A DNA stretch of 55,112 nt from a bacterium (GTDB taxonomy: Bacteria > Armatimonadota > JACIXR01): contig JBMFMH010000002.1 of assembly GCA_049970775.1 (NCBI GenBank), positions 1 to 55,112 on the forward strand, read 5' to 3'. The notes beneath the pieces were generated by a model. That model made no database searches and was not told where the DNA came from. It saw nothing but the letters and a program-made list of their open reading frames with translations. The position numbers and the translations under genes were made by a program. Positions 375 through 47,671 of this stretch are shown in pieces. Within the stretch, counting starts at the first letter, position 1, and the number at the start of each line of letters is the position of its first letter.

Positions 375-1238
375 ATGCTTAAAACCAATGTTGATAGGTT
401 GATTGAAACCTCCGTGAGAGGGGAGGTCATTCAACCTCGTGTTTGGCTACCCCAGATAAGTCATAAGGGCGAACCTCTATTTCTTCCCTCTACCGGTGGC
501 ATAACTTACAATGTGAAAATAGGGGATAGCGCCTTCGGTTGGGTCGGCGACCATATAGAGCCAGGGGTAACCATAAGGGCAAAGGACGAAAGTGAGAATT
601 CGGCCCTCAACATCCTTGCCTGTATCGGAAATATAGCCAAGGTAGTAAGCGGCGATGCTAAAGGAGAAACCGGTTTCGTCACAGGAAAACATGGCGGGGC
701 TGAGCACATCCTCGTTTACTTTCCTCCCTCTGTTTTGGAAAAGTTGAACATAGGAGACCAGGTTTTAGTAATGGCAAAAGGGCAAGGATTGAGAATCATC
801 GGATGGGAAGATGTGTTCATCTGCAACATAGACCCTGGGCTTTTGGATAAGCTCAACATAGAGGAAAAGAATGGCAAGCTCATCGTCCCCGTTGTGGCTG
901 AGGTGCCTGCTCACTTAATGGGTTCGGGGATAGGTTCAACCCAGGTTGTGAGGGGAGATTATGACATAATGACCGCAGATAGAAGAGAGATTGAAGCCTA
1001 TGGATTACAAAACCTCCGCTTGGGAGATTTTGTGCTTTTACGGGATTGTGACAATACTTATGGAAGGGGATTTCTCAGAGGTGCTACTTCTGTGGGTGTA
1101 GTTATCCATAGCGATTGCGTATGGACGGGGCACGGTCCAGGGGTTACCGTTGTTATGTCCAGCAAAGAGGGGAAAATTGAGGGAAGGATAGATGAAAACG
1201 CAAACTTGGCGAACTACTTAAACATCGCCTCTATTTAA
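375..1238 (+). CDS. Conserved hypothetical protein, DUF4438-like (287 aa)
   Basis: Strong SD (AAGGAGGT) 7 nt upstream of the ATG and a long clean ORF. Length and sequence character match my recollection of the DUF4438 family. No catalytic motif was recognised. Confidence 0.8.
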   Translation: MLKTNVDRLIETSVRGEVIQPRVWLPQISHKGEPLFLPSTGGITYNVKIGDSAFGWVGDHIEPGVTIRAKDESENSALNILACIGNIAKVVSGDAKGETGFVTGKHGGAEHILVYFPPSVLEKLNIGDQVLVMAKGQGLRIIGWEDVFICNIDPGLLDKLNIEEKNGKLIVPVVAEVPAHLMGSGIGSTQVVRGDYDIMTADRREIEAYGLQNLRLGDFVLLRDCDNTYGRGFLRGATSVGVVIHSDCVWTGHGPGVTVVMSSKEGKIEGRIDENANLANYLNIASI

Positions 1239-1941
1239 AATATCGCTTGAGACCGATGACCTTCCCTATTATCCGTAAGCGCTTCTCCCTTATATCCACG
1301 ATTATAGGAGGATAAGATGGATTGAGGCTTTCCAACTTCACCTGGGTATCTTGTTTAATCACTTTCTTCACGGTTGTTTCAAATCCGTCTTCCGTCTCCA
1401 GAGAGACGACGGCGATGTCGCCGTTTTCAACATCGTCCTGCTGGCGAACGATTATGAAGTCCCCGTGCATTATCAATGGATACATACTATCGCCCGTGGC
1501 ACGGAGTGAGAAAGTGGCTCCTGGATATTCATCCTCATAGATCAAGATGTAGCCGAGCAATTCTTCCAGAGCTTCGTAGGGTTTTCCGCAGGGGACCTCA
1601 GCAATAACTTTAAGCAACTTCATACCCCTCGGCAGGGAAGGGGAGAGCTTATCCCCTGGAGGATAGCCGAGACGAAGCAGAAGAGGGGTAGGGTCTATTC
1701 CCATCTGGGCTCCGATTTCCTGAAAAAGGGATAAGACATCTATTCCCAATACGGAAGCTATCGCTTCAATAGTGGAGCGGCGGGGGAATGTGAAGCCTCT
1801 CTCAAGGCGGGAAAGCACGCTTGCGGAGATGCCAGCTTGGGAGGAAAGGTCGCTTAGACGCATTCCTCTTTCCTCCCTTAAAATGCGCAGGCGTTCTCCT
1901 AAAATCCTTTTAAATCTACCAGTTATTTCTCTCACACTCAT
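1231..1941 (-). CDS. XRE-type HTH plus S24 peptidase repressor (LexA / phage-CI-like)
   Basis: The N-terminal HTH is ILGERLRILREERGMRLSDLSSQAGISASVLSRLERG. The C-terminal S24 autopeptidase core is GDSMYPLIMHGDFIIVRQQ with a downstream ...GKVIGLKR. It overlaps the convergent DUF4438-like gene by 8 nt. Confidence 0.9.
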   Translation of the reverse strand: MSVREITGRFKRILGERLRILREERGMRLSDLSSQAGISASVLSRLERGFTFPRRSTIEAIASVLGIDVLSLFQEIGAQMGIDPTPLLLRLGYPPGDKLSPSLPRGMKLLKVIAEVPCGKPYEALEELLGYILIYEDEYPGATFSLRATGDSMYPLIMHGDFIIVRQQDDVENGDIAVVSLETEDGFETTVKKVIKQDTQVKLESLNPSYPPIIVDIREKRLRIIGKVIGLKRYFK

Positions 1942-12602: not shown

Positions 12603-15365
12603 CTATAGAAATACTCCCTGTTCAGAAGGTCTTAGCTCCTCACTGCATTCCTTTATTCTGCCGTTTTCCATAAATATGTAGTAATGGAAAAGATTGGGAT
12701 TGAGGAGTGGCGTGTGGCTTATAACGAATATTTGGTCAAATCTTTCCGCTATTTCACCTTCCGTAATCACCCTAATTAACGCCTCTTTTCTCTGCTCATC
12801 AAAAGAGGAGAGAGGTTCGTCAAGGAAGAGGAAGGAAGGGGCTGTTCCTCTCTCCTGAGGAAGAGAGGCGAGGGCAAAGGAGAGGCGAAGGGCAAGGGAC
12901 ATTTGGTCTCTTGTTCCTCCACTGAAGATATTCTTATCCTTCCAATCTCCCGCTCTCTCATCAAATACCCTGATTTTGAAGGTCTCAGCGTCAAGGTCAA
13001 CCTGCCGATATCTGTCATTGGTTATAAGAGGGAGGATACGCCACATATGGTCAATGGTGCGAGGGAGAATCTTCTGGGTTATATTTCTCCTCGCTGTCTC
13101 CAAAATCCTCACGCTCAGCTCCCTCACCTTATGTTCCCTCTTCAATTTCTCGTATTCCTCTCTACATTGTTCAAGAGGCGGTATATCACCTATTATCTGT
13201 TCCTTAAGTAGCTTTTTCTCCCTTTCTAATTGGATAAGTTCAGCCCTTTTCTCATTAAGGGTTCTGCTTATTTCCTCAAGTGGTGGGAGGTCGGAGGGGA
13301 ACTCTCCTCCCAACTCTTTGAGCTTTTCATCTGCTTTCTCCTCCAATTTGCTTGCTTCCTCCCTCAAAGAATCTATCTTCTGCCTTTGGGCACCTAAACG
13401 GGATATCGCCGATTGCAGTCTTTCCTCAGGTCGTTCCCTCTCCAATTCGTCCATTCTCTTTTTCAATTTTATTCTCAACCTTTCCCATTCCTCAAAGGAA
13501 AAGATGTCCGAAACCTCGCCCTCAAAAACCTTTGCATCCTCTTTTATTTTTTCTCTTACCTCCTCTATTTCCCTACCCATCTCTTCCTTCTTCCTGTTTA
13601 ATTCGCTTTCCTTTGAAATCAAATTCTCTAAGCTTCTGATTTCGCTATCAAGCTTTCCCAAATCTTTCGTTAAATCCTCCATTTCTAAAGATAGCCCATA
13701 CCTTACCGCTATTTCCTTTATTTTCTCGCTCCTTTCGCTTATTATTTTCTCCGTCTTTTCCTGTCTCTGGACCACCTGCTCCCGAGTGGAAGTCTGGAAG
13801 TAAGGAGGAAAATTAACGAGTTCTCTTTCAATGCTACCCACTTCTATCTCCAATCTCCTGATTTCCGTTGACAGTTTTTCTTTTTCATTTTCCAACTTAT
13901 TTTTCTCCTCTTCTTGCTTCACAAGCTCCCTTTCAATCCACTCTTCCTCTTCAGGAATCAACCCATAGCTTTCAAGTTGTCCCTTGATTTTCTCCCTCTC
14001 GTCAATATCAACCTTTCCAATTAATGGTTCTATTTTAGCGATTTTTATCAGGAGGTTTCCCCGTTTAATAAAGGCAACGATTCCACAGGCGAGGGGAAGG
14101 AGAGCAATTAAAGAGAGCCATTTCAATGGTGAGAGAATGAGCAGAAATAGAAGCACAGCGCTGCTTATCCCAGCAATACCACAGGTTTTATAAAAAGAAG
14201 CTCTCCCTTCCAGTTCCTTCTTTTTCTCTATATACGCCCTTTTCCCTTCTATATCCTTGAGCTTCTGCAGCAATTCCTTTATATTCTCTTTTTCCTTTAT
14301 CTTCTCCTCTTTGGCTTTTAAATTTAACTCCAATATACTTTTCTTGCTTTCTACCTCCTCCAACTGGCTTTGCAATTGCATCCACTTCTTAATCTCATCC
14401 CTTAGCTGAAAGAGCTCCTTTAACTTCTTTAAAATATTGAGCAAGGTGCTTGCCTTTCTCCTTTTTTCTTTGATGGAGGGAAGACTTTCCTTAGCCCCTG
14501 CTACTACCTCAATCTCCTTGCCTATGCTTTCTAATGTTGCCTCTTTCTCTTTAAGCAGACGAAGCGAGGAAATCAAGTTATCAACCTTGTGCTCCTTGTT
14601 TCTCAATTTCTTTAGTTCATCCGCTTTTTTCTGCCAATTGTTCCTTTCCTCCTCAAGGACAGGTATTTTCTTCTCTTCCTCATCTGCTTTCTTCCTATTA
14701 TCTTCCGCTTGGACTCGTAATTGTTTCACTTCCCAAAATCCTAAAAGTCTTTCATTACGGGAAATCTCTTCTTGGATTTCAGGGATTTTCTCCCCTATTT
14801 CCGCCAGCCGAACCTTCCGCTCCAAATCCTCTACTTGCCTCAAATCCTCCCTTTTCAAACTAAGCTCCTCCTCAATCGCTTGCATTCTATCCAAATTCAA
14901 CAGCTTCATAACAGCGCTCTCCCTAGCAGACCTATCCATTCCTTCCAGCCTTTCCAAAGCCTTTTGTTCAACAAAACAAGAATTAAGAAGGGTATCAGCA
15001 TCCAAATGGAGTTCCTCTTGTATTCTCCTATTGACTTCCCTAACGGTTGTCAACAATTCATTCCCGATACGAAGCTTCGCTACATTCGTTCTATTTCTCC
15101 TTATCCTCCGCTCCACTCTAAGCAAATCGTCGGCTAGCTCCAGTTCAAGATAAACAACCGCTTCATTCAGCCCATAACCTATTAACTCCTCCGTGCTTCT
15201 CGCTTGTAATGCCCTTCCGAAGAGTGCGAAGAAAACAGCTTCAAAAAGGGAGCTCTTACCCGCCTCATTGCTTCCTTGGATGAGAAATGTTCCCTTAGAA
15301 GGAAACCTAAGGTCTATCCCACGCAAGTGCTTAAATCCCTCAACAGCCAATCTCTTAATCCTCAT
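12603..15365 (-). CDS. rad50: Rad50/SbcC-like SMC-type ATPase; lacks a zinc hook and has a central hydrophobic hairpin
   Basis: Motifs seen: Walker A GSNEAGKSS, signature SGGTRDQMSLALRL, Walker B FLFLDEP and H-loop VISHTP. Long K/E-rich coiled-coil arms are present. It lies 3 nt downstream of mre11. Confidence 0.9.
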   Translation of the reverse strand: MRIKRLAVEGFKHLRGIDLRFPSKGTFLIQGSNEAGKSSLFEAVFFALFGRALQARSTEELIGYGLNEAVVYLELELADDLLRVERRIRRNRTNVAKLRIGNELLTTVREVNRRIQEELHLDADTLLNSCFVEQKALERLEGMDRSARESAVMKLLNLDRMQAIEEELSLKREDLRQVEDLERKVRLAEIGEKIPEIQEEISRNERLLGFWEVKQLRVQAEDNRKKADEEEKKIPVLEEERNNWQKKADELKKLRNKEHKVDNLISSLRLLKEKEATLESIGKEIEVVAGAKESLPSIKEKRRKASTLLNILKKLKELFQLRDEIKKWMQLQSQLEEVESKKSILELNLKAKEEKIKEKENIKELLQKLKDIEGKRAYIEKKKELEGRASFYKTCGIAGISSAVLLFLLILSPLKWLSLIALLPLACGIVAFIKRGNLLIKIAKIEPLIGKVDIDEREKIKGQLESYGLIPEEEEWIERELVKQEEEKNKLENEKEKLSTEIRRLEIEVGSIERELVNFPPYFQTSTREQVVQRQEKTEKIISERSEKIKEIAVRYGLSLEMEDLTKDLGKLDSEIRSLENLISKESELNRKKEEMGREIEEVREKIKEDAKVFEGEVSDIFSFEEWERLRIKLKKRMDELERERPEERLQSAISRLGAQRQKIDSLREEASKLEEKADEKLKELGGEFPSDLPPLEEISRTLNEKRAELIQLEREKKLLKEQIIGDIPPLEQCREEYEKLKREHKVRELSVRILETARRNITQKILPRTIDHMWRILPLITNDRYRQVDLDAETFKIRVFDERAGDWKDKNIFSGGTRDQMSLALRLSFALASLPQERGTAPSFLFLDEPLSSFDEQRKEALIRVITEGEIAERFDQIFVISHTPLLNPNLFHYYIFMENGRIKECSEELRPSEQGVFL

Positions 15366-15368
15366 TTC

Positions 15369-16535
15369 CTACCTAACCTCCCTCCACTTGGAGAGCGCCA
15401 AATCAAGAGCAGATTTAATAAGTTCCCTGTCCTCTTCAAGGCTCTCAGCGACGCTTTTGAGTTCCTCTTCAACACTCGTTGGACCATTATCTCTTCCCAC
15501 ATAACCAGCTCTCTTGAGCCTCAAACCTTGCCAATCAAAATCAAAGAAGAAGTTCATAGTGCTTCCTTCCCTGTAAATATGAACAAAGGGAATTTCCCTG
15601 AGGATATCGTTCTCTATTTCCCCCATCAACTTGCACTTCAACAGCTTTTCCGGATGGGAAACGCTCTTAATGCGAGATATTATATAATTTAGACGCTCAT
15701 CCTTTGGTCTATGTTTGAACTCTTCGCAGTGAATTTCTAGGTTTTGCATAGGTTGAGCGGATATTTTTTTATAGCTAATCCTCGGCTTCTCCGCTATCTC
15801 AAGGAGATAAAAACCAGTTTCGTTTTTCTCCTCACCGAAATCAATCCTCTCTGTGGCGCCTGGTATGATGACGAGTTTGTTTCCTAAATCAAAGTGGAAA
15901 TGAGGATGTAGGTGTCCAGCAATTAGGAGGTCAAAGGGAATGGCACGAAGGGTATGAAGGGAAACAACTGCGCCTTCATAATTCGGTGGCATCCTTCCTT
16001 CTATCGCATAGTGGAACATAAAGATACTGAAATCACTGTTTATAGAAGGGAACTGTAACTTCTCCAGGGGATTGCCATCCCTCACCCTTGGGTCGCAGGA
16101 AACCCCAGCTATGGTGATTCTCTTCCCCTTAACATCAATTACTTCCGTTTCAACTGAATATTGTTGCTTGAAAACTTTCACTGCACCGATAACATCCAAG
16201 AGATAGATACAAGGTGCGCCTCCTGCCTCATATCTTGCCTTAGGTATATCGTGGGTCCCGCCGATGAGAAACGACTTTATTCCTGCGGATTTCAATCTCA
16301 TAAACTCGTTAAGGACAAATATCAGTTCTGAATAGCGCGGGTCAGGCATATCAAATATATCGCCTGCGTGGAGGAAGATATCAGCTTTCTCCTCAATTGC
16401 AAAGTCAACGATTTGCTTAAAAGCGTTTCTAAGATATTCCCGCCTCTTCTCAAGCTGTTCCGGTCTCATCTTCGCGTAGTAGGCGTTAAGGTGCGTGTCG
16501 GCACAGATGACGATTTTCACCGCTTCAGACACCAA
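15369..16535 (-). CDS. mre11: Mre11/SbcD-type metallophosphoesterase nuclease
   Basis: Motifs seen: KIVICADTHL (motif I), FLHAGDIFD (motif II), GGTHD, and GHLH followed by HFH. The true start is probably the GTG at 16520 (MKIVICADTH). It is tightly coupled to the herA stop. Confidence 0.9.
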   Translation of the reverse strand: MVSEAVKIVICADTHLNAYYAKMRPEQLEKRREYLRNAFKQIVDFAIEEKADIFLHAGDIFDMPDPRYSELIFVLNEFMRLKSAGIKSFLIGGTHDIPKARYEAGGAPCIYLLDVIGAVKVFKQQYSVETEVIDVKGKRITIAGVSCDPRVRDGNPLEKLQFPSINSDFSIFMFHYAIEGRMPPNYEGAVVSLHTLRAIPFDLLIAGHLHPHFHFDLGNKLVIIPGATERIDFGEEKNETGFYLLEIAEKPRISYKKISAQPMQNLEIHCEEFKHRPKDERLNYIISRIKSVSHPEKLLKCKLMGEIENDILREIPFVHIYREGSTMNFFFDFDWQGLRLKRAGYVGRDNGPTSVEEELKSVAESLEEDRELIKSALDLALSKWREVR

Positions 16536-18234
16536 AATCCATCTCCCCTAATTCATCATCAATGAATGTTTTTCTCGTTGCCTTATCGGATATCGCCCTC
16601 TTTAGCTCCTGAACGATGTCAACATCGGCGCCACCCTCAGCTGATTCTCTTCTACCAACCTTAATCATAACGGGCACCCTCGTAAGCTCTCCCAGAACGA
16701 CCGCTTCCCCAGTATTCAAGCCCGGCAAATCAGCGAGAAGGGCTTCGGAAATGTTCTCGGAAGCCATACGAACTGCCTTCTGGTCCTCGGGATTGGTAAG
16801 TTTCATTATTATCTGGCTTCCGCATTGGGAGAGAGTATCTTGGTTAATCTTATAAGGACGCTGGGTTATAACCACGAGGAACACCTTGAATTTTCGTCCT
16901 TCCGCAGCGATTTTATTTATTATCTCGGCGCATCTGCTCGGTTTTCCTCTTCCGGGAACGAAGTTATGCGCCTCCTCAAGGAATACGAACAAAGGTCTTG
17001 GCAACTGTCCAAGCACCGCTTTTTCCCATATCCCTCTCAGCGTCCTATCAACGACTATCTCCATTGCCCTTTGCTGTAAACCGGCGAGGTCTATTACCGA
17101 GAGGGTTTGGGGAGAAATTATCTCGTCCAAGGGGAGGTCTTTATCGCCCCATATCTCCAAGGAGGCGAGACGGTCAACATAAGGCTTTACCCTCCTTAGT
17201 TCCTCATAGGAGGGAGCCGAGCCCTTATCCTTCTTCTTTTTCGCCTTGTTTTGCATCTCAGCGGTAATCCCCTCAAGCATCTCCTCGTTTACATCCTCAG
17301 CGATTTCCTCAAGCTCGCCTCCTAAATCATCTGAGCCCAACATTTCCTCAACCGCTTCCTTGAGCATTTGAGGGGTAAAATAGGGGCTTTGCTTTTTTAA
17401 GATGTTGAACAATATTGTTAAAGTATCCCTTATGCGAGTCCAGCTCTCTGGAATTTGTGCTATTTCAAATATATCCTCATCCTCCAAGGTCCAAAATCTT
17501 ATGGTGTATTCCTCACTTCCACCGATTTTGTCGTCGCTATACCTTCTTTCCGCTTTTAGGGGGACCCTATATACTCTAACGAAATGGGAGAAGGGGGTTC
17601 TCCTTCCATCAGGAGTTAAACGCATCATAACATAATCAGAGTTTGGGTCAAAAACAAGAATAGTTGCCCCGAGTTTCAATAGGTTTTCCAAGAGAAGACC
17701 AGCGAGGTAGGATTTTCCAGCGCCCGTTTGAGCGATTATAGCGAGGTGTCTTCTCAAGCCATTGGGGTTCAACACCACCTCAACGCCTTCCCTATTAATC
17801 AGGTTTCCAATTGGGATGCCGTATTCCACATCTTTGGAGAAGAAGTTGCGAAGGAAATCATCAGAGGCAAGGTAAACGGGCTGACCGGGAAGGGGGGTAT
17901 GGCGAGGCAATTTAACCGTTCCCTCAGGGGTAAGATAGCCCAATACATCGGCTGTTCCGATTATCTTTGGGCGAGGGGCAATTCCCTCCAAAATAGCCCT
18001 CGTTTCCTCAAATGTCAGTTCTTCTCCCAATATCTGAGATGCCACCTGAAGGCGGCTAACTTGAGCGAGGACATCAACTCGTTGAAGCCCAGGCTCAATT
18101 GCAGGGACATCCCTCACAACGAGATATTCAAGGCGAGGCGGGCAAATGCTCGGTTCAGTAACAAAGTTGAACCTTTGGGTTTCCACATTCCCAACTATAT
18201 ATCCCACTGGTTCATAGCTTTTCACAACCTCCAT
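16525..18234 (-). CDS. herA: HerA-type (DUF87/FtsK-like) hexameric ATPase/translocase
   Basis: Motifs seen: Walker A IIAQTGAGKSY and Walker B LFVFLEEAHNFVP, plus VVITQRP...IIMKLTN. The N-terminal barrel-like region has the pattern GYIVG......F. Confidence 0.9.
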   Translation of the reverse strand: MEVVKSYEPVGYIVGNVETQRFNFVTEPSICPPRLEYLVVRDVPAIEPGLQRVDVLAQVSRLQVASQILGEELTFEETRAILEGIAPRPKIIGTADVLGYLTPEGTVKLPRHTPLPGQPVYLASDDFLRNFFSKDVEYGIPIGNLINREGVEVVLNPNGLRRHLAIIAQTGAGKSYLAGLLLENLLKLGATILVFDPNSDYVMMRLTPDGRRTPFSHFVRVYRVPLKAERRYSDDKIGGSEEYTIRFWTLEDEDIFEIAQIPESWTRIRDTLTILFNILKKQSPYFTPQMLKEAVEEMLGSDDLGGELEEIAEDVNEEMLEGITAEMQNKAKKKKDKGSAPSYEELRRVKPYVDRLASLEIWGDKDLPLDEIISPQTLSVIDLAGLQQRAMEIVVDRTLRGIWEKAVLGQLPRPLFVFLEEAHNFVPGRGKPSRCAEIINKIAAEGRKFKVFLVVITQRPYKINQDTLSQCGSQIIMKLTNPEDQKAVRMASENISEALLADLPGLNTGEAVVLGELTRVPVMIKVGRRESAEGGADVDIVQELKRAISDKATRKTFIDDELGEMDFGV

Positions 18235-18241
18235 TTTCCTT

Positions 18242-19375
18242 TTAAAACCTCCTTCCGAATCTCGTATCCACTTTGCTCCTTCGTATGGGAAGCCTCGTGA
18301 GCTCCCTTAGGAGGGTAAGATAAACATCCTGGTCCCTATCCCTTAGGATAATCTCGTTATGGGCAGCGTAGAGAAGAGTTTGATAGACATTGAACCCTCC
18401 ATGGGAGGAAAGAAGCACGGAAAGGATTGGATAAATTAGTTCCTCATCCCGTATAGTTATCTCCTTTAATTCCTCTTCATCAGCCTTTATTCCAAGGGAG
18501 GAGGAAAGAACATCAACCCTATACACTTCATCGCCCTCCTCAAAGCGGATGTAGAAAATGACGACTGAGAGGAAAGGGAGTACTTTTTCAAGGCGGGAAG
18601 AAACCTCCTCACTCTTAGGGGAGGAAATAGAATCAAGGAAATCCCTTTTCACTCTCTCCCAGTCCCAGGGTTGAGGGATGACATAAGGACCAACGAGAAG
18701 GGGAGTTGAAAAACCGACGCCTTCCGTCCAAAAGGAGAAAACCTCCAAATCCGTTATATCGGTTTCCTTGTTCAATAACAGTCTCGGATAGAAGTGTCCC
18801 CGGCTCGTTTTGGATATCCCGATGAGCTTTATGTTGTATTGCATAGTAGCTTCAAGGAGGGAGAGGAAAGCTTCCAGCGCTCTCAGGGGCATATCCTCCA
18901 GTCCCTCCGGCATCCGCTGAGCGAACCTCGCCCAGCTAAGAAGGACGAGTGGTATGTAAAGGCTTCCATCAAGGAAGAGGAAGGAATTGCTGATTCTTTC
19001 TTTATAATCGCCACCGATTTTCCACTCCAACCACTGGCGGTGCACTTGATGAAACCTTTCCACATCAACCTTTTGGGTATCCCTGAAAGCCTCCACATCC
19101 ACTTCCACTTCCCTCCAATCCTTCCCTTGGAGAAGCGCCTGCACTATTGAAATGTATCTTCCACCCTGAACGGCAAGGCAAGCATTTGAACCATCTATTG
19201 CGTAAAGGGGAGAGTCGCAGGAGGGGAGAAGCTCGGGGAGGGGATGCCAAAAACGGGCGACCTCTTTTTTCAAGAAGGATTCATCTTCATTTCTTGGCTC
19301 ACGCATAAAAAGGGTGTAGAGTTTGTCTTTCTTGATATTTATATTCTCGGCGAACTTATTAGGGTAGCAGGGCAA
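18242..19375 (-). CDS. nurA: NurA-domain 5'-3' nuclease
   Basis: The catalytic-type motifs LYAIDGSN and FLFLDGSLYIP (NurA D...DGS pattern) are present. It has a TTG start with an AAGGAGGG SD 5 nt upstream and lies 7 nt upstream of herA. Confidence 0.8.
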   Translation of the reverse strand: MPCYPNKFAENINIKKDKLYTLFMREPRNEDESFLKKEVARFWHPLPELLPSCDSPLYAIDGSNACLAVQGGRYISIVQALLQGKDWREVEVDVEAFRDTQKVDVERFHQVHRQWLEWKIGGDYKERISNSFLFLDGSLYIPLVLLSWARFAQRMPEGLEDMPLRALEAFLSLLEATMQYNIKLIGISKTSRGHFYPRLLLNKETDITDLEVFSFWTEGVGFSTPLLVGPYVIPQPWDWERVKRDFLDSISSPKSEEVSSRLEKVLPFLSVVIFYIRFEEGDEVYRVDVLSSSLGIKADEEELKEITIRDEELIYPILSVLLSSHGGFNVYQTLLYAAHNEIILRDRDQDVYLTLLRELTRLPIRRSKVDTRFGRRF

Positions 19376-19397: not shown

Positions 19398-19426
19398 ATT
19401 ATATTTCCATACTCTTTCTCTGTCAA
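19398..19426 (-). promoter_or_regulatory. Perfect sigma70 consensus promoter (TTGACA-17-TATAAT) upstream of nurA
   Basis: On the minus strand, TTGACA is at 19426-19421, followed by a 17-nt spacer and TATAAT at 19403-19398. This is about 10 nt upstream of the SD of nurA. Confidence 0.68.
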
Positions 19427-26188: not shown

Positions 26189-27817
26189 TTGATGACGAGC
26201 TTCAGGGAATTCGTCCTCGTTTGTGAAAAAATAGAAAAAGAAAGTGGTAAGAAGGAAAAGGCGAGACTGATAGGGGAATTTCTTCAACAGCTCTCCCCTA
26301 TTGAAGCTAAAATCATTTCCTATCTTTTCCTCGGCCGCTTTCCGGCGGGAAAAAGAATATTTGTTTCCTGGAACACACTCATTGATGTCCTCGGCGATAT
26401 GTTCCCCATTTCACCGGAAGAGATGGCAAAGATAACTGAAAATGCGCTTGATGTAGGAGACATCGTTGAGGGGATATATAAGCGATGGGATAGATACACT
26501 TCCAAGGGGTTAAGCATTCAAGAGGTATACGAGCATCTTGAAGGATTGGCTGTTCTTGAGGGAAAAGGCGCTATGCAGAAAAGGAAAGCTGTATTGAAAA
26601 GACTTTTAGCGAGTATGGATGAGCTTGAAGCGAAATACCTCGCTAAAGTCATAGTGGGAGAAATGAGAATTGGGGTGAAAGAAGGAATGATTCTGGAGGG
26701 ATTAGCCAGCGCTGTTGGACTTCCCCTTAATGAAATAAGGAAGGGTTTTCTCCTTTTAGGTGATATAGGGGAGACGGTTCGGGCTTTTATAGAGAAAAAG
26801 GAAAAAACCTTGAAATCTACCTCCCTTACCCCTTTTAAACCTCTTCAGCCAATGCTTGCTCAGATGGCGTATTCCTTAAAGGAAGCTTTTGAGGAAATAG
26901 GGGATGAATTGGCACTTGAGTTCAAATATGATGGAGCAAGAGTGCAGATACATAAGGAAAAAGACAAGGTTATGATTTTCTCCCGCCGCCTGAACGATTT
27001 GACGCCTTCCCTCCCGGAGGTAGTGGAGGAAGTGAAAAGGGAGATAAAAGGAGATGTTATTTTGGAAGGGGAAGTAGTGGCTATAAAAGAGGGTAGGTTC
27101 CTCCCCTTTCAAGATATCCTTAGAAGGATAACGAGAAGGAAGGAAATAGAAAAGATACGGGGAGAAATCCCTTTAAAGCTCTTCCTGTTTGATTGTCTAT
27201 ATTTGGATGGTGAGTCCTTGTTGGATATCCCTTATGAGGAAAGATGGAAAAGATTAGAGGAAGTAGCGGGAGGAATTTCTCTTGCGGAAAGGATTTTACC
27301 GAGAAGCCTGGAGGAAGGAGAGCGCTTCCTACGGAAAGCCTTGGAAATGGGTGCCGAGGGAGTTATGGTTAAGGCTTTGAAAGGGATATATACCCCGGGA
27401 AGCAGGGGGAAACTCTGGCTTAAAGTGAAAAAGGCGATAACTTTGGATTTAGTGATAATAGGGGCGGAGTGGGGATATGGAAGGAGACATAACTGGCTAT
27501 CCGATTATCATCTTGCTTGTTGGGATAGAGAGCGGAAAGAGCTGCTAATGGTGGGGAAAACCTTTAAAGGATTGACCGATGAGGAATTTGAGGAGATGAC
27601 GAGGAGACTTCTATCCTTGAAAGTAAAAGAAGAGAAAGGGATAGTTTATGTCAAGCCTGAGGTTGTGGTGGAGGTAGCTTTCAGTGATGTTCAGAGGAGC
27701 TCAAAGTATAAATGCGGGTATGCCCTTCGCTTGGCGAGGATTTTGAGGATAAGGGATGATAAAAAGCCTGAGGAAGCGGACGATATCTCGGCGATTGAGA
27801 AGCTGTATCAAGCCTAA
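26189..27817 (+). CDS. lig: ATP-dependent DNA ligase, three-domain archaeal/eukaryal Lig1-like type
   Basis: Motif I is EFKYDGARVQIH (KxDG), followed by LEGEVVA, LFLFDCLYLDG, EGVMVK...LWLKVK and the C-terminal OB motif LRLARILRIRDDK. The probable start is the ATG at 26192. Confidence 0.9.
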   Translation: MMTSFREFVLVCEKIEKESGKKEKARLIGEFLQQLSPIEAKIISYLFLGRFPAGKRIFVSWNTLIDVLGDMFPISPEEMAKITENALDVGDIVEGIYKRWDRYTSKGLSIQEVYEHLEGLAVLEGKGAMQKRKAVLKRLLASMDELEAKYLAKVIVGEMRIGVKEGMILEGLASAVGLPLNEIRKGFLLLGDIGETVRAFIEKKEKTLKSTSLTPFKPLQPMLAQMAYSLKEAFEEIGDELALEFKYDGARVQIHKEKDKVMIFSRRLNDLTPSLPEVVEEVKREIKGDVILEGEVVAIKEGRFLPFQDILRRITRRKEIEKIRGEIPLKLFLFDCLYLDGESLLDIPYEERWKRLEEVAGGISLAERILPRSLEEGERFLRKALEMGAEGVMVKALKGIYTPGSRGKLWLKVKKAITLDLVIIGAEWGYGRRHNWLSDYHLACWDRERKELLMVGKTFKGLTDEEFEEMTRRLLSLKVKEEKGIVYVKPEVVVEVAFSDVQRSSKYKCGYALRLARILRIRDDKKPEEADDISAIEKLYQA

Positions 27818-34438: not shown

Positions 34439-36322
34439 TTACATCATTCCAATTCCCAGAGTTGAGTAGAGGACCAAGGAGATTGTTCTTCCAAGGTAGT
34501 GTCCCACTATCAGCCCGATGAAAAAAGGGGTTGCTTTATTGAAGGTCTTTAGCCCACCCCAGCGAAGGAGCGCCAACTTAACCAGCCAAGCGCAGAAGGC
34601 ACCCAGATAAACCGCATAAAGAGTGAAGGAAGAAGCAATCGCCAAACCTATGGGATGGATTGGCCACCATACGAAGCGAAGATGAAGAAATGTGAAAAGC
34701 CCCATCATCACCGCACCACCTAAAGCCCAGAGAAAATATTCTGCCTTAAAGCCAAAGGGATTTCTTATCTGGCTGAGCACTTGCTCGTAGGTGTTTGGTC
34801 CCCAGCCCTTGAATATCCAGGTGTTCCAGGTTAAGGTTCCCTGCTTGTATCCCGTGTAGATTATGAAAAGGGGAGCAACTATTAAGCCTATACCAGCGGA
34901 TAAGAAAAGGGATAGAGAGAAATGCCAGCCTTTTGCGCGCTTTGCCTCCCATAATCTTGCTCCCTCAGCGGAGAATACGGAGAAGACATCCTGAGTATCG
35001 CCATGCCAGGAATAAGATAAGCCGAGGGAGACCATCCCTTGATGACCGATGAATTTGCTACCGAAACCGAATATGCAGATATTCTGTGCTATGACAGGTG
35101 GAACTATGTAGAATATTCCCGATTGACAAACGATGCGAGAAAGTCCGATGTAGATGAGGATAACGAAGAGCAGGAAAAAGAAAGCTATTAGAAAAGACAT
35201 CCCTGAGCGATGAAGCCAGAAAAGGAGATAGGAAAAAGAGAGGAGAAGGAGAGGAAGGAGGAGGCGAGGGGGAATCAACTCCTCAACAGCTGATTCTTTT
35301 TTAAAGAAGCTTAAAAGGAGGTTGAAAATGTGGCGTCTTGCGAGGAGGATGGAGGAAATAGTGAAAACGAGGAAAGCGCCCAATGATTGCCAGGCAATTG
35401 CTGCGTTTCCCCAAACGAACATCCCTCCTGAGCCTAAAGCGATTGCGAAACGATGGAAGAGCGCCTCTTCAATTAAGGTGAGAACATAAAAGAACCAAAT
35501 TCCACACAATACATCGGTGGGAACGAAGAAGCCAACGCCAAAGGCAAGAAAATTGAAACATAAAAGGGGCTGGCTTCTAACCGGGGTCCATCCCCAATCC
35601 AAACACCCTATGTGGTCTACAGGTAAGGAAGGAAGGGCTGGAATGTAGAGATGAAGGGCTTGTTCAGCCATAATGAGAAAGGGAATGCTTACCCCAATCC
35701 AAAAGAGGGATTTGCGGAAGAGCCCTTCTCTTCCCCTTTCAACAAGGAAAATGGGAACTTGCATCAATGGATAGGAAAGCTTCTCGTTTTCCATCCAATA
35801 TCTTCTAAAAAGGGTTATCACTGTATAGGAAGCGATAAAGAGGATGAAAAAGAAAGGAAGCCAATGGGAAAGTGGGGTTAGCCAAGCTTTTATGGGGATA
35901 CTTTCTCCTTCAGGCAGCCCTTCAAAAAACCATTTCGCAGCAAGTTTATCATTTACAAATAAATTAGGTTTAATATAAGGAATGAGGTCTTTATGCCACT
36001 TATTTTCCGGGGAGGCGAAATATAAGGGAGAAGCAATTGCGGAAAGGAACATATAGATGAGGAAAATTGGGGTGGAGTTCGCCACGAGTGCCATCGCGAA
36101 GATTACGAGGAGCTCCCCTGAGGTCAAGCCGAGGCAAGGCTTAATGCGAGATATTATGAAATTGATAAGGAGAAGAAAGATGAAAGGTATGACCGCACCT
36201 TCGGGTAAATAGCTCCAAGAGAAATTGCTGAAGGCTCTGCTTTCCGTGAGGGGGGAAAGCGTGTTTACAAAGACAGAAAGGAGAATCCCGATGAAAATAG
36301 CCCTGAAAGTTACAGCTTTCAC
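34439..36322 (-). CDS. Polytopic membrane protein (about 16-18 TM segments), function unknown
   Basis: The 627-aa ORF is continuously hydrophobic. Its GTG start overlaps the stop of the upstream S55-like gene by 4 nt (GTGA). No transporter signature was recognised. Confidence 0.85.
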   Translation of the reverse strand: MKAVTFRAIFIGILLSVFVNTLSPLTESRAFSNFSWSYLPEGAVIPFIFLLLINFIISRIKPCLGLTSGELLVIFAMALVANSTPIFLIYMFLSAIASPLYFASPENKWHKDLIPYIKPNLFVNDKLAAKWFFEGLPEGESIPIKAWLTPLSHWLPFFFILFIASYTVITLFRRYWMENEKLSYPLMQVPIFLVERGREGLFRKSLFWIGVSIPFLIMAEQALHLYIPALPSLPVDHIGCLDWGWTPVRSQPLLCFNFLAFGVGFFVPTDVLCGIWFFYVLTLIEEALFHRFAIALGSGGMFVWGNAAIAWQSLGAFLVFTISSILLARRHIFNLLLSFFKKESAVEELIPPRLLLPLLLLSFSYLLFWLHRSGMSFLIAFFFLLFVILIYIGLSRIVCQSGIFYIVPPVIAQNICIFGFGSKFIGHQGMVSLGLSYSWHGDTQDVFSVFSAEGARLWEAKRAKGWHFSLSLFLSAGIGLIVAPLFIIYTGYKQGTLTWNTWIFKGWGPNTYEQVLSQIRNPFGFKAEYFLWALGGAVMMGLFTFLHLRFVWWPIHPIGLAIASSFTLYAVYLGAFCAWLVKLALLRWGGLKTFNKATPFFIGLIVGHYLGRTISLVLYSTLGIGMM

Positions 36323-39300
36323 ATCACTAAGAAATCCATCATATCTTCAATTGCATCATCTGCATCGCTTTGTTTTGGGCTCTTCTCATTTTGCGTTGAG
36401 GGCTTATTTTCTTTCTCTTTTTGTGCTTGGGGTGGCTGAGCTTCCTTCTTTGGAGGCACAACTTCTTCTATCTTCTCTATTTTTCCTTCCTTACCAATCG
36501 TTATCTTTTCCTCCAGGGTTGTTTCATTTTTTGCTGAATCCCTTGCCTTTATCTTCAAGGTAATTTGGGAAAGATTGCCCTCAGGAATTTGCGCCAAAAT
36601 CGTAAATGGCTCTTGCGTAGTGGAGAAAAGACCTTTGGATGGATTGGCACTGTAGAAGATATCTCCTCCGACGCTGTAGCTTACTTCTGTTACCGGGCTG
36701 AGGTTGTCCTCCGCTAAGCCCTCAAGATAAATCTTCCCATCAACAATCTTAACCGTGTCCTTATAAACGGTTATGCGTGGCGGTGTATTATCAATCTTTA
36801 TCTCAATCACCTTTTCCGCACTGAGTGCCCGAGAAGGAGGGTTACTACCGGCATCGGAAACCACGAGTTTGAGGAAATAGCGACCATCCTTTTTATCTTT
36901 AGTGTTAAATTGGTATTGATTCTTTCCCTCTACCTCGCCCACCTTCTGCCAATTTTTCCCATCCTCGGAAATATAAATCGTTGTTATGAGGGTATCGTTG
37001 TTAGGGTCCGCTGCTTGCCATTTTATCTCGGCTGAGCCGGATAGGGAATCCCCAAAAACAGGAGAAGAGATGGACAGGGTAGGGGGAAGGTTTTGCGGGA
37101 GGAGATAGACGGTAACACGGTGAAGGGAAGGCGTTTGTGAGGCGTCGTTTGTTGATAATTTAGCCCTGTATTGAAGGTAGCGAGCGGGGGGACTAAGGAT
37201 GCTTCCATCTGGTCCAAGCGGTGCCCAAAGACTCCATCCCTCATCGGGTAGAGGGGAATTTCCGCTCCTCGTTTCTATCTGCAACGAACAGGGGGAAGGG
37301 ATATCCGCCTCGTAGGTTATCCTTCCCCACTCACAAGTAATCCCACCATCAAATACGGAGGAAGTAAAAGTCCCTTCCTTCGCATAGGAGGAAGTTGAGA
37401 GAAAAATTGTAGGCGGATTACTTCCCAAAGCGATTATTCCCTTCCTTGCCCTTAAAAAACCGGTGATGTCAGAGCTATCCGCCTGAAAGGCGAAACCCCA
37501 TCTATCAGTGCGAGAAGGGTCAAGGAGGTAAATTCTTCCGTTGTTGCTTGTTCCAACAAGGATATGCCCAGATGTATCAATTAGGCTATAGATTGCTCTC
37601 TCCTTAGTATCCGCTATCTCAAAAAGCCCTCTATCCGTTATGCGGAGAATTTTTCCACCGGGAGCAGTGCCTATATACACATCTTTGCCCACGCTCAATA
37701 TAGCGCTCACCGTTTGGGAATTTGTGGAATAGAAGGAGCTCCCGCTTTCCCTATAGAAAATAACCAATCCTTGTGGTGATGTGCCGAGTATCAGAGCATC
37801 GTCTTTCTCTCCCAGCTTCACGATGTGCTGGTCGGGAGCGATGTATATAAGAGTGGCTTTTCCCTCGGGAGAAAGGGAATATAAGAACCCCTTTTCCCCA
37901 CCGGTAGCCACTATAAGCCTATTCTGTTGAGGAAGCAAATCCCAGATATAATCAACGGGAAGGGTGGCAAAAGGAGAGAGCGTTCTATTGCCGATATCAA
38001 CTGTGTAGATGTTGCCTCCAGGGAAGGAAGCAGCGATTATCTTCCCCTGCCAATTGATTAAGCGTAGACCTATTTCATTGGTCTTAATAATTTTTTCCAC
38101 CTTTCCATCCGAGGATATCTTGAAGATAGCGCCCGTGCCCAAGGTAGTAGCGAGGTAGTATTCACCCTCATCCAATGCCGAGAGGAAAAGGGAGCCGGGC
38201 AGGGTAGCTATTTTCTCCCATTTGGGAGCCAGGATTATCTCTCCTCCCTTTGTTACAACAACACTTTTTATCTCGCCTTGGGCGAAATCCTCGTATTTCG
38301 CTTGTATCCATACCCTCTTTGAGGGCACGGAGGGAGGTGCTGGAGCGCTCGGAGGAGCTTGAGGAACCTCCGCCTGCGGCTGGGGAGGAGGTTGCTGGGG
38401 TTGGGCTTGTTGCGGTTGTGCCATCCCCGTTCTCATAAGGGCGGAGATGAAAGAGGAGGTTTTCGCTGAATAAAAGAATATTTCCTCCTCTCCGCCAGTT
38501 GGAATGGAGGCTGGTGTTGGGACTTCCTCCTGAGGTGCACCGGAGGGCAAGGCAATTGCGGGCGCCTTACCCGTCTTTGAGATAATTATCGGTATGTTTT
38601 TAACCCCTGATATCACCCATTCCGTATCAAAGGAGGAAACTGAAACATAAGGAACACGACGAAGCGCTGTTTCCTTACTTGAAGTTATCATCTCCTCAAT
38701 TCCCGTGGGTAAAGGGGATAGTAGTTTATCCTCCAACTGTATGCGGGAACGAGACATAACTAATGAGACAACGAGATGATTATTTTGAGGAATGTCCTCA
38801 ATTAATTTGAGGAGGTCAAAAAGATTGGTCGGTGTTTTAAATCCCATTACCTGTGGCGGGATATAAGCCCCACCACCAACATAAATCATCGCTCTCCCCT
38901 CCGGTGCCTCGTAGGGGATGTTAAGGGCTATGGGGAAGGTTATCGGGTCCTCGCTTCCGTATTTTTTCAGATAAACTGTCAGAGAGACTTTATCCCCCGG
39001 TTTAACGATGTTCTTGTCAATGGATAACTTCTCAATCCTTGCCAACTTTCTTCCTTTGTCCACCTCAACTTGAACGCTAACCCTTTCCGGATAAACAGCC
39101 TGGAAAATGTTATCACGGAGCAAGGAGAGTATATCCTCAAGGAAATAGGAGGAATCTAAACCTGCCCCTATGGATGAATAGAAGATGTCCCTCTTCCTTA
39201 AGTGTTTTCCATCTTCCAGCTGAATATCCAATGAAACCTTGCTCATAACATCTACAGGGTCAGGGAAGGAAAGGAAGAGAGCGTTTTCCACAGCGGTCCC

Positions 39301-40311
39301 GATTAGGGCATTGGTTAAGGATGGATGCTTAACCACTTCCACATTGAACCTCTGCTTTTTATCCCCATTAATGATGATGATGGAGACGGGGACCATATGA
39401 GGAACTATCCCGGTTTTCCCGCTTATTGAGAAGTAGCCGTCCCTTGTTAGGGAGCCGATGACATCACCAGGCGAGCCCAATTTAGTTGAAATAGCCAAGC
39501 TCGGGATGATATCGTGTATATAGGCGGTTACAGCTGGCATCTGGGCATCTCCCATATCCATCATAGAGTGCCCGAAGGCGAGCCATTCTCCCTTTTCATT
39601 TATGTAAGTTAAAGTTCCTATCGCCGTTATCTGCATATCGCCGCTCATCAACTGACAACCAAGTGCAGCCCCTGGAACTAAAGGGGCTTTCACCTGCATC
39701 TTTCCTCCTCCTGGCGACTGCATAAAAATGAAACCCGCTTTCTCAAAAATGGAGGACGCCTTTTCCAACGCTTTAGGGTGAAAGCCTGAAGCTATCAAGG
39801 GAATGGCAATGGGAACCATAGTTACATATTCATCGTTTCCCGTCGTTTTTATCCCCATTTCCCTTAAGAGCGAGCTCTTCACCCTTAGCTGTGCACCGCC
39901 GATGGGAACTTCCTTGTTGGCTGAGACAATCATATTTTCTATCGGGGTTATGCCGGCAAGAGGTTCAAGGGAATAGCGCCAGGTCAAGGCTACTGCTCCT
40001 ATCAGCTTGCCGTTTATATAAACTGGGCTTCCGCTCATTCCCGCTATCACTTTGGCATTTCTTTGCGTTATGGGACCGCCTGAGAGGCGAGCCAAGATTA
40101 TATCTCCTGTGATGTTGTCCTTGGGGAGAACGCCTAAAATTTCCACATCAAACTTTTCTATTTTTGTTCCCTTGAATACAGTGAGACCATATCCCTTCAT
40201 TCCCGGCTTTATATCCTTCACCCGCATCATAGTTTTGGGGTCGAAGGACAAGGCGAAACCCAAAAGAGATAGCAAAATAGGAAAAATAAATCTCAAAACT
40301 TTTCTTGTCAA
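36319..40311 (-). CDS. Giant secreted protein: N-terminal SpoIVB-like S55 serine peptidase domain, PQ-rich linker, propeller-like repeats, Ig-like domains
   Basis: A TTG start has a GGAGGAG SD 6 nt upstream, and a signal peptide is present. MKGYGLTVFKGTKIEKFDVEILGV...AGMSGSPVYINGKLIGAV matches the S55 trypsin-like core. The linker is AQPQQAQPQQPPPQPQ. The tail is K/E-rich and ends acidic. Confidence 0.8.
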   Translation of the reverse strand: MTRKVLRFIFPILLSLLGFALSFDPKTMMRVKDIKPGMKGYGLTVFKGTKIEKFDVEILGVLPKDNITGDIILARLSGGPITQRNAKVIAGMSGSPVYINGKLIGAVALTWRYSLEPLAGITPIENMIVSANKEVPIGGAQLRVKSSLLREMGIKTTGNDEYVTMVPIAIPLIASGFHPKALEKASSIFEKAGFIFMQSPGGGKMQVKAPLVPGAALGCQLMSGDMQITAIGTLTYINEKGEWLAFGHSMMDMGDAQMPAVTAYIHDIIPSLAISTKLGSPGDVIGSLTRDGYFSISGKTGIVPHMVPVSIIIINGDKKQRFNVEVVKHPSLTNALIGTAVENALFLSFPDPVDVMSKVSLDIQLEDGKHLRKRDIFYSSIGAGLDSSYFLEDILSLLRDNIFQAVYPERVSVQVEVDKGRKLARIEKLSIDKNIVKPGDKVSLTVYLKKYGSEDPITFPIALNIPYEAPEGRAMIYVGGGAYIPPQVMGFKTPTNLFDLLKLIEDIPQNNHLVVSLVMSRSRIQLEDKLLSPLPTGIEEMITSSKETALRRVPYVSVSSFDTEWVISGVKNIPIIISKTGKAPAIALPSGAPQEEVPTPASIPTGGEEEIFFYSAKTSSFISALMRTGMAQPQQAQPQQPPPQPQAEVPQAPPSAPAPPSVPSKRVWIQAKYEDFAQGEIKSVVVTKGGEIILAPKWEKIATLPGSLFLSALDEGEYYLATTLGTGAIFKISSDGKVEKIIKTNEIGLRLINWQGKIIAASFPGGNIYTVDIGNRTLSPFATLPVDYIWDLLPQQNRLIVATGGEKGFLYSLSPEGKATLIYIAPDQHIVKLGEKDDALILGTSPQGLVIFYRESGSSFYSTNSQTVSAILSVGKDVYIGTAPGGKILRITDRGLFEIADTKERAIYSLIDTSGHILVGTSNNGRIYLLDPSRTDRWGFAFQADSSDITGFLRARKGIIALGSNPPTIFLSTSSYAKEGTFTSSVFDGGITCEWGRITYEADIPSPCSLQIETRSGNSPLPDEGWSLWAPLGPDGSILSPPARYLQYRAKLSTNDASQTPSLHRVTVYLLPQNLPPTLSISSPVFGDSLSGSAEIKWQAADPNNDTLITTIYISEDGKNWQKVGEVEGKNQYQFNTKDKKDGRYFLKLVVSDAGSNPPSRALSAEKVIEIKIDNTPPRITVYKDTVKIVDGKIYLEGLAEDNLSPVTEVSYSVGGDIFYSANPSKGLFSTTQEPFTILAQIPEGNLSQITLKIKARDSAKNETTLEEKITIGKEGKIEKIEEVVPPKKEAQPPQAQKEKENKPSTQNEKSPKQSDADDAIEDMMDFLVM

Positions 40312-44303: not shown

Positions 44304-44308
44304 GGGAA

Positions 44309-47300: not shown

Positions 47301-47671
47301 TGCCTCTTACGCTTCCCATTGTTGTTAGAGGACTGCAGGAGCGGTGGAGCGTTTTTCTTTTGGAAAGGGATAAGAAAAGAGCGAGACCACTTGGGCAATT
47401 AAATGATAAGGCTTATGCCACAATTGACCTCCGGGAAGGAGACAAGGACATCTTTATTGGACACCCAATCGTTTGCGATGACAAAGAAATCTTTATAAAT
47501 GTGGTTCAAACTGGAGATAAGAGATTCAGTGTATATTTGCACAATCCAAGTTCAAAGAAGAAAAACATAATAATTAGGAGCAATAACTTATGGAGTTGGG
47601 GTAAGCTTCGCCCCCAGAAACTATCCCTCAATCCCGGAGAGGTTAAACAAATAGAATGGTTTGTTGATTGA
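44309..47671 (+). CDS. Giant secreted protein of unknown function (N-terminal GATase1/ThuA-like fold suspected)
   Basis: The ATG at 44309 is preceded by GAGGTGAGGG, and a signal peptide MRKIFLLVCGLFSIVICQ is present. It sits 5 nt after the upstream gene's stop (with the GTG at 44300, a 4-nt overlap). No catalytic motif was recognised. Confidence 0.8.
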   Translation: MRKIFLLVCGLFSIVICQQKPAVLFLQTGLEDREVAKRLMQAGFEFDFRWDFPEESYIKQFNVVVLQRGGAYLGDREREILLRFVAEGGGLFISLWKGEHLEDWNGQFRLLEQIDARLRPEAVHDKEREREGGTPWGIIFASTSNIFPSPVSKGVSLIWYPVSEGAGGASATLTFDVGNEWQIVVRGEASAKSILWESNARGLPPDMIPQEGISAPPIFAIRTYGEGRIALCSINSSYHFWGGYATALKGIVMEKGINNQPSHFLRLLLNTLDWLAEPSLKSAKFGGAKTPSQLLQEPKLPLVPPWNWENPRFPPPPKVFKGIVGAQTGLSGGKGKVEDYAKIARSLGLDFIVFLEDFSNLPKDKWEELVRECMAVSGKDFLAVPGFRFEDGYGNHYFSAGYRTRYPDDYLLDEKRRFATTHPDIKAPGQAGLVILDWMHNLNRMNLTIGSWLHSQNPCPYYEFRAYDAVALFSQDFRKDPPKLLDELVEGYKHLQNRGESLWPFAISLIDEPKQLKKAMEEGYLNFFEAADLDDLKEQISSWHASMPPYCHLRYVSNGPRILEWRFIGPRDYENFDWFDWTHWRWRLRLVVQSDVGLREIMVYDGEDLVRHFYPKGEKNFVWEEDFNHGQQHNLFVIARDLKGRQAISMELFDRPQPLLEEFMCGDRMNQLSYSMQRRDDGTGAQSGFVWGMTPNKGPWNGAGQIAPSSTYKPDNRLGGMIPGFDGAPGGDPTLYINPALECDKGEEDLSQGRIWTDRLLHSADLMMGYGRSDGFYPPGVPALNVWNTLAPAFPSKLLDAEIKRTYFNLRPGLFSSILVDLEIKFKEDVKVDKLVLGQFNKAGAKSWFIRTPEGEIISSEKNHDAFKEWGKLKFVKDNYIAFCGSPLGSVAVFNLGDEPLDVYVQRDSPSWEIRFPIDGKVLKKGDVLRAKILVVGTPFTVEPDEKWVEWVRSEMGLAGKPAYRLEIEKGKVISQEYILEVDGKGEGFAGRISKSNLPLTLPIVVRGLQERWSVFLLERDKKRARPLGQLNDKAYATIDLREGDKDIFIGHPIVCDDKEIFINVVQTGDKRFSVYLHNPSSKKKNIIIRSNNLWSWGKLRPQKLSLNPGEVKQIEWFVD

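Follow-up and report, generated by a model that had tools for sequence, protein, structure and literature searches.

The window analysed here, a stretch of 55,112 nt from a bacterium of the Armatimonadota (assembly GCA_049970775.1, contig JBMFMH010000002.1, positions 1 to 55,112; all coordinates and strands are given on the scale of this whole stretch), carries a gene for a 920-residue Rad50-like ABC ATPase (12603..15365, minus strand; Pfam AAA_23, SMC_N and SbcC_Walker_B) that has a bipartite head, a long coiled coil and no zinc hook. Judged from its sequence and those of its relatives, a 43-residue segment at the tip of the coiled coil probably forms a membrane-embedded two-helix hairpin that replaces the hook. 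The zinc hook normally joins the two Rad50 arm tips, and current models of Mre11-Rad50 action, in which rods or rings close around DNA and ends are tethered, rely on tips that are joined; to our knowledge the hook has been regarded as common to all Rad50 and SbcC proteins and as essential to their function. The segment described here challenges this assumed universality, and the family has a cultured host, Dictyoglomus turgidum. If our reading is correct, a large natural family that has swapped the hook for a membrane hairpin would amount to a natural experiment on hook function.

A hydrophobic two-helix segment between the coiled-coil arms

Positions 14067-14195 (minus strand) translate to residues 391-433, FYKTCGIAGISSAVLLFLLILSPLKWLSLIALLPLACGIVAFI, and confirm the hydrophobic two-helix block that an earlier sequence-only reading of this DNA had picked out; it is the sole hydrophobic block of the 920-residue protein (Kyte-Doolittle 19-residue maximum 2.32). 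Within it, hydrophobic helix 1 (residues 394-411, TCGIAGISSAVLLFLLIL; 14133..14186, minus strand) is joined by the turn S-P-L-K-W (residues 412-416; 14118..14132, minus strand) to hydrophobic helix 2 (residues 417-433, LSLIALLPLACGIVAFI; 14067..14117, minus strand), after which K434-R435 come next. Both helices, ~17-19 residues each, are supported by the Hessa and Eisenberg scales, and helix 1 also by alignment columns that are 85-100% hydrophobic. Summed free energies (dG) on the Hessa scale are -1.93 and -1.17 for the best 17-mers of helix 1 and helix 2, respectively, as against +8.3 for the best 19-mer elsewhere in the protein, and an equally hydrophobic 43-residue window turned up in two of 20,000 shuffles of the protein. 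The Eisenberg mean hydrophobicity (<H>) and hydrophobic moment (muH) are 0.81 and 0.18 for helix 1 and 0.84 and 0.11 for helix 2, so neither helix is amphipathic; control segments from the arms give an <H> of ~-0.2 and a muH of ~0.3. Apolar helices, a short turn, flanks rich in K and R and the lack of amphipathicity together make up the sequence signature of a putative two-helix transmembrane hairpin.

We modelled the protein with AlphaFold2 (AF2) using a 79-sequence alignment (mean predicted local distance difference test score, pLDDT, 83). In the model a helix at residues 376-409 and another at 417-449 are separated by a loop at 410-416, and the hairpin is predicted to continue both arms. 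The block had been described as lying near the midpoint of the protein and it is indeed central, but its centre falls at 0.45 of the length, a little to the N-terminal side of the midpoint. The charged coiled-coil flanks reported on both sides are borne out, as the sequence flanking the hairpin is 47-48% charged and is modelled as long helices.

A Rad50 head without a zinc hook

The N-terminal half of the head (residues 1-170; 14856..15365, minus strand; AF2 pLDDT ~90) contains the Walker A motif GSNEAGKS and the Q-loop residue Q134, and the C-terminal half (residues 761-920; 12603..13085, minus strand; Pfam SbcC_Walker_B) contains the signature SGG, the Walker B motif FLFLDE, the D-loop and the H-loop residue H884, so that every motif expected of a Rad50/SbcC head is present. 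Across 79 relatives there is no variation at G31, N33, E34, G36, K37 and S38 of Walker A, at Q134, at S815-G816-G817 of the signature, at D849-E850 of Walker B, at D856 of the D-loop or at H884. The sequence matches in the PDB are archaeal Rad50 heads (M. jannaschii and P. furiosus, E 6e-19), and a Foldseek search with the AF2 model returned C. thermophilum Rad50 (7zr1) as its best match, the top matches being full-length Rad50 and SMC proteins.

A long coiled coil is predicted between the head halves, with AF2 helices at 172-409 and 417-781. The ascending arm (residues 171-393; 14187..14855, minus strand; 48% charged) would measure ~33 nm if fully helical and is modelled as a single helix at 172-374 followed by one at 376-409. 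The descending arm (residues 434-760; 13086..14066, minus strand) is modelled as ~11 helices that together span 417-781. Two pairs of conserved residues stand out in the arms: L366 and W369, conserved at 92-94%, ~28 residues before the hairpin, and G447 (87%) and P472 (84%), just after it in the descending arm. The protein is thus like canonical Rad50/SbcC proteins in its head motifs, its Mre11 partner and its long, predicted antiparallel coiled coil, and has every other defining feature of the family; it differs from them in having neither a CxxC nor a match to Rad50_zn_hook, and in an apex made of a hydrophobic hairpin.

The sequence-only reading had counted five cysteines and no CxxC, and both counts are correct: the cysteines stand at residues 130, 395, 427, 734 and 907, and neither CxxC nor Cx(1-5)C occurs anywhere in the 920 residues. 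Pfam Rad50_zn_hook had been expected to give no match, and it gave none in a scan of the full length (E <= 0.01) or of the central 189 residues (E <= 10). A hidden zinc hook is rejected on these grounds, since there is no CxxC and no profile match even at E <= 10 in the central 189 residues. The hook is likewise missing from the family: none of 232 relatives has a CxxC, and a hook-type CxxC at mid-length is limited to the six weakest of 120 protein matches (P0114-P0119, E ~1e-12 to 1e-14).

A second possibility is a hook substitute built on the cysteines of the hairpin, which stand in the similar contexts TCGIAG and ACGIVA that had been pointed out before. These contexts are present, but they are not conserved in the family and define no hook substitute. 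C395 and C427 are missing from the close relatives P0008, P0010 and P0011, they are unconserved even at 50-56% identity, and any cysteine at all occurs in the hairpin of only 18 of the 79 relatives. A Cys-based substitute is rejected on these grounds, and one built on a metal or a disulfide has no support.

The hairpin is the rule in a large family

A word-indexed search for relatives gave 120 matches at 90% clustering, and 105 of them combine a hydrophobic block of 35-50 residues at the centre with the lack of a CxxC. HMMER, run exhaustively against 1.84 billion representatives clustered at 50% identity, gave 359 clusters at E <= 1e-30. One cluster contains the cultured thermophile D. turgidum, whose homolog is UniRef100_A0A7C3SRR6. 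Among 126 new representatives within the best 150 of these 359 clusters (all E <= 1e-61), the central block reaches at least 30 residues in 106, is shorter in six and is missing from 14, and a CxxC is found in none. Taken together, ~85% of more than 200 relatives have the hairpin, at a relative position fixed at 0.45 ± 0.01-0.03 of the length. A survey of homologs for the hairpin and for co-occurrence with herA and nurA had been proposed, and its answer is that the hairpin is normal in the family and that linkage to NurA and HerA recurs in several phyla.

When one genome was scanned for each GTDB species, at least 271 species proved to have a relative. The 79 loci that we fetched come from Chloroflexota (the majority), Nitrospirota, Caldisericota, Dictyoglomota, Armatimonadota, Acidobacteriota, Bathyarchaeia and Halobacteriota, the source names of the protein matches add Lokiarchaeota and another Asgard lineage, and the hairpin is seen in relatives of at least eight phyla. 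The sequence-only reading had named an assembly artefact as something that would overturn it. A frameshift, a chimera or a mis-called open reading frame (ORF) is rejected and has next to no chance of being the explanation, because a 99%-identical protein with the same segment (P0001) comes from an independent assembly and homologs at 50-62% identity retain the segment; the uninterrupted 920-residue ORF, which spans both head halves, also speaks against it.

The remaining ~15% of the family have neither the hydrophobic hairpin nor a CxxC and fall in two or three derived clades, two of them seen in a rough neighbour-joining tree, which indicates secondary loss. Hairpin-less members include the proteins P0028, P0037, P0042, P0050, P0051, P0068, P0075 and P0101 and those of the loci L019, L031, L047, L048, L076, L060 and L078; at the hairpin position P0028 has an amphipathic, Pro-containing segment.

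Membrane signatures and the case for a membrane hairpin

Across the 79 aligned relatives, from which all of the following hairpin statistics are drawn, the loop between the two best 17-residue apolar windows has a median length of three residues and is rich in Pro and Gly (SPLK, VQP, QP, GP and similar). The 12-residue flanks outside the helices contain 28% and 24% K/R, as compared with 15% overall, and 12% and 7% D/E, as compared with 18% overall; flanks rich in K/R and poor in D/E fit the positive-inside rule for an in-out-in hairpin, and column 434 is K or R in 76% of the relatives. The hairpins themselves are 82% L/I/V/F/A/G and 1.7% charged. Family means on the Eisenberg scale are 0.81 and 0.83 for <H> and 0.11 and 0.10 for muH of the two helices, and 92-94% of the relatives lie above the transmembrane threshold of 0.68 in <H>. 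Alignment columns stay 85-100% hydrophobic while the residues themselves vary, and in the hairpin only Pro413 of the turn is conserved as such (63%). Hydrophobicity that is kept without the sequence being conserved is the behaviour of lipid-facing helices and not of a specific soluble interface.

The sequence-only reading had left two options for the apex, insertion into the membrane or a hydrophobic substitute for the hook, and every sequence-based test that we ran favours the first. That the segment is probably a membrane hairpin follows from the hydrophobicity scales, the lack of amphipathicity, the Pro/Gly turn, the charges of the flanks and the hydrophobicity that is conserved without conserved sequence. 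Of the second option, the Cys-based version falls away as described above, but a version without cysteines remains as a rival, in which the hairpins pack as a cytosolic hydrophobic helical bundle that joins the arm tips and never enters the membrane. Such a bundle would sit exactly at the position of the hook, and Rad50 function is expected to require that the tips dimerise in some form; 44 of the 79 hairpins contain small-xxx-small motifs, which are favourable to helix packing; and a soluble apex can work, since in some relatives the segment at this position is non-hydrophobic. However, the uniform hydrophobicity of the helices (muH 0.1-0.18, 1.7% charged) means that a dimeric bundle would expose a greasy surface all round, the sequence lacks the conservation that a specific interface would show, and the length of the helices, their tight turn with its Pro and the wealth of K/R in the flanks are signatures of a membrane segment. 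In addition, the analogous domain of Bacillus subtilis SbcE, the closest described counterpart, is completely insoluble (Krishnamurthy et al., Nucleic Acids Res 2010, PMC2811018). We therefore consider a cytosolic bundle unlikely.

Several points weigh against the membrane hairpin. Helix 2 is marginal as a 19-mer (Hessa-scale dG +1.84) and includes a Pro, and both helices are short for a full crossing of the bilayer, so the hairpin may possibly be re-entrant or monotopic. The descending arm is ~100-125 residues longer than the ascending one (~365 as compared with ~238 in the AF2 model), an inequality that the membrane hairpin leaves unexplained. The loss of the hairpin in ~15% of the family without the gain of a hook means that anchoring is not indispensable to the family, and dimerisation of the tips inside the membrane is a step that we purely infer.

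The four-gene operon and its neighbourhood

Pfam and NCBIfam profile scans assign the three genes that precede the rad50-like gene, all on the minus strand, to its expected partners in DNA end resection. The first, nurA (18242..19375), encodes a NurA nuclease of 377 residues (Pfam NurA 4.5e-18), the second, herA (16525..18234), a HerA-type hexameric helicase of 569 residues (Pfam DUF87/HerA 6.7e-34; NCBIfam helicase_HerA 2.2e-58) and the third, mre11 (15369..16535), an Mre11/SbcD-type nuclease of 388 residues (Pfam Metallophos; NCBIfam Mre11_Sulfo 1.8e-25). Because the spacings in the order nurA, herA, mre11, rad50-like are 7, -11 and 3 nt (herA overlaps mre11 by 11 nt, and the rad50-like gene starts 3 nt after the end of mre11), and because a promoter-like site with a perfect consensus lies directly upstream of nurA (TTGACA-17-TATAAT; 19398..19426, minus strand; the assignment being a 12/12 consensus match only), the four co-oriented genes are read as a single operon.

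The top-ranked NCBIfam models for all four proteins are those of the archaeal repair proteins Rad50, HerA, Mre11 and NurA, and the equivalog cutoffs are widely missed (104 bits as compared with 700 for Rad50, 198 with 970 for HerA, 90 with 500 for Mre11 and 23 with 400 for NurA); the four proteins are therefore divergent relatives of the archaeal ones. Archaea of the Sulfolobus and Pyrococcus type have a herA-mre11-rad50-nurA operon for end resection. The operon in the window shares with it all four gene families, tightly packed and co-oriented, and differs from it in its order (nurA-herA-mre11-rad50), its bacterial host, its hookless Rad50 and scores that are far below the equivalog cutoffs. 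The supposedly archaeal operon exists in several bacterial phyla in a hookless form.

Neighbours were sought by tblastn with the window proteins in 10-kb flanks of the 79 loci, many of which lie on short contigs, so that the counts are lower bounds. An Mre11 gene lies within 10 kb at 34 or more of the loci, a HerA gene at 18 or more (16 of them strong matches) and a NurA gene at 13 or more. The full nurA-herA-mre11-rad50 set is found in the clade of the window (L001-L003), in Anaerolineae (L004, L050), in Dictyoglomota (L013, L034, L053, L062) and in Bathyarchaeia (L017), and at Caldisericota locus L011 all four genes are present but nurA is displaced. Members linked to HerA and NurA group near the base of the rough neighbour-joining tree, with further ones scattered within Anaerolineae, and many members from Chloroflexota stand alone amid housekeeping genes. 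The recurrent neighbours of these stand-alone members, judged by sequence inspection only, include no new partner gene and resemble a solute-binding protein, an HD-domain dGTPase-like protein, a subtilisin-like protease, an inositol monophosphatase, a methyltransferase and a sugar-nucleotidyl transferase. At four loci of Anaerolineae/Chloroflexota, mre11 and the rad50-like gene are kept apart by one or two large genes whose products are, by sequence inspection only, secreted proteases of the subtilisin-like kind (L012 7523-9787, L055 6839-9811, L066 2645-8024 and L074 7602-9860).

Repair, defence or DNA that crosses the membrane

The genes around the operon encode glycoside hydrolases, peptidases and a sugar ABC transporter, which gives the setting the look of an unremarkable stretch of chromosome from a saccharolytic bacterium. 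A different use of a membrane-anchored hairpin is conceivable, in which the machine handles DNA that crosses the membrane, either incoming DNA for recombination, a role that has been suggested for SbcE at the competence pole, or foreign DNA in defence, and does not serve chromosome repair. In this direction point the matches of HerA to NCBIfam CedD (7.8e-20), a model of membrane-associated DNA translocases, and to anti-phage HerA models (~1e-27), as well as cross-matches of PADLOC models (LmuB, mad3, mad8 and HerA). In competent cells of B. subtilis, SbcE and its partner SbcF accumulate at the pole, and transformation is mildly defective in an sbcE mutant (PMC2811018). Against this, the repair models outscore the defence models (helicase_HerA 198 bits as compared with 97, archaeal Rad50 104 bits as compared with 91 for LmuB), Mre11 and NurA have no PADLOC match, the neighbours are housekeeping genes of sugar metabolism and peptidases with no defence island and no competence or uptake genes nearby, and close relatives are missing from plasmids and viral contigs. 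A role in handling membrane-crossing DNA is thus improbable.

The mobile collections were probed directly: tblastn against 72,556 plasmids gave one weak match and no close relative, and the viral contigs of IMG/VR hold only remote relatives (E >= 4e-9). A defence system or a mobile element is not supported, as the PADLOC matches are only generic and the setting is housekeeping. The Lamassu protein LmuB does resemble the window protein in its Rad50-like head and coiled coil (PADLOC LmuB 3.5e-26); the difference is that here there is no LmuA or LmuC partner, the partners being Mre11, HerA and NurA in a chromosomal housekeeping setting, and that the family is absent from the plasmid and viral collections. 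The mad8 and mad3 models of PADLOC represent components of the MADS defence system, mad8 matching HerA (3.4e-33) and mad3 the Rad50-like head (1e-22); these matches probably reflect generic homology, these components being related to the HerA/Rad50 pair.

SbcE as the closest described precedent

The closest described precedent is B. subtilis SbcE (YhaN), and the paper on it is the only relevant one found in our full-text literature search. SbcE is an SbcC-like ATPase without a CxxC and with arms of ~300 residues, and it pairs with the SbcD-like nuclease SbcF (YhaO) and forms polar foci in competent cells (PMC2811018). Its "unique central domain" has a hydrophobic first half and a conserved proline and is insoluble when expressed, and the paper does not call the domain transmembrane (PMC2811018). 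Both SbcE and the window protein are thus SMC/SbcC-like with arms of ~300 residues, lack a CxxC, have a hydrophobic central domain with a conserved Pro and are encoded beside an SbcD/Mre11-like nuclease, and they differ in that SbcE is not linked to HerA and NurA and the window protein is. If the membrane hairpin is correct, it would offer a structural explanation for the insolubility of the central domain of SbcE and for its polar localisation in B. subtilis.

The sequence-only reading had suggested a related clade of the YhaN/SbcE type. A large hookless family with a hydrophobic apex and a likeness to SbcE does exist, but by Pfam it is not the YhaN (AAA_27) family proper. The match of the window protein to AAA_27 (PF13514, YhaN-type) is partial, covering profile positions 1-93 of 206, the P-loop part, at 34.8 bits, and that to AAA_23 (Rad50/SbcC) runs end to end, over profile positions 1-194 of 201, at 68 bits; eight diverse relatives repeat this pattern of a partial AAA_27 and an end-to-end AAA_23 match. 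By these profiles the window protein is SbcE-like in architecture and not a member of the YhaN family, the likeness being drawn to the published description of SbcE and not to its sequence. The statement that no case linked to HerA and NurA was known also stands, as our full-text search, whose coverage leaves out many subscription papers, yielded no account of a Rad50 whose apex is transmembrane or of one linked to HerA/NurA.

A possible membrane-tethered resection machine

With the membrane hairpin as the probable reading of the apex, the arms and the ATPase head would be cytoplasmic, both helices would span the cytoplasmic membrane or dip into it, and the turn SPLKW with its Pro is predicted to face outside the cytoplasm. 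Tight hairpins with short loops are classic substrates of YidC and the signal recognition particle (SRP). The head with bound Mre11, together with HerA and NurA from the same operon, would be held ~30 nm below the membrane, a distance reckoned from 222 arm residues with a rise of 0.15 nm per residue. Shared anchorage in the bilayer would take over the task of the hook in holding the Rad50 arm tips together, the tips being kept close by two-dimensional confinement and probably also by packing of the Gly/Ala/Ser-rich helices. Engaged heads, arms and membrane would then form a closed ring around DNA, and the complex would process DNA ends near the membrane.

Extended to the whole family, this becomes a proposal that we make tentatively and regard as rather doubtful in its entirety: a large and ancient Mre11-Rad50 clade of Chloroflexota, Dictyoglomota, Caldisericota, Nitrospirota, Bathyarchaeia and Asgard archaea in which the membrane replaces the hook and closes the ring, so that the resection machine (Mre11-Rad50-HerA-NurA) would be tethered to the membrane and act on DNA ends at the envelope, for example those of imported or exported DNA or of membrane-proximal breaks, with SbcE and SbcF working on the same principle. 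If true, many bacteria and archaea, D. turgidum included, would process the ends of double-strand breaks at the membrane.

Other genes in the window

Further genes in the window were noted in passing. At 26189-27817 (plus strand), ~7 kb from the operon, lies a gene for a three-domain ATP-dependent DNA ligase (DNA_ligase_A_N/M/C) of the archaeal/eukaryotic type, in what is apparently a bacterial genome. A 1123-residue ORF at 44300-47671 (plus strand) has no Pfam match at 1e-5. A protein with a helix-turn-helix (HTH) and a Peptidase_S24 domain, encoded at 1231-1941 (minus strand), is a LexA- or CI-like self-cleaving repressor, and a complete DUF4438 protein with both its N- and C-terminal domains is encoded at 375-1238 (plus strand). 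Finally, a 1330-residue protein with a SpoIVB-type S55 peptidase domain and a Big_7 domain is encoded at 36319-40311 (minus strand) and a DUF6785/DUF6784 protein at 34439-36322 (minus strand).

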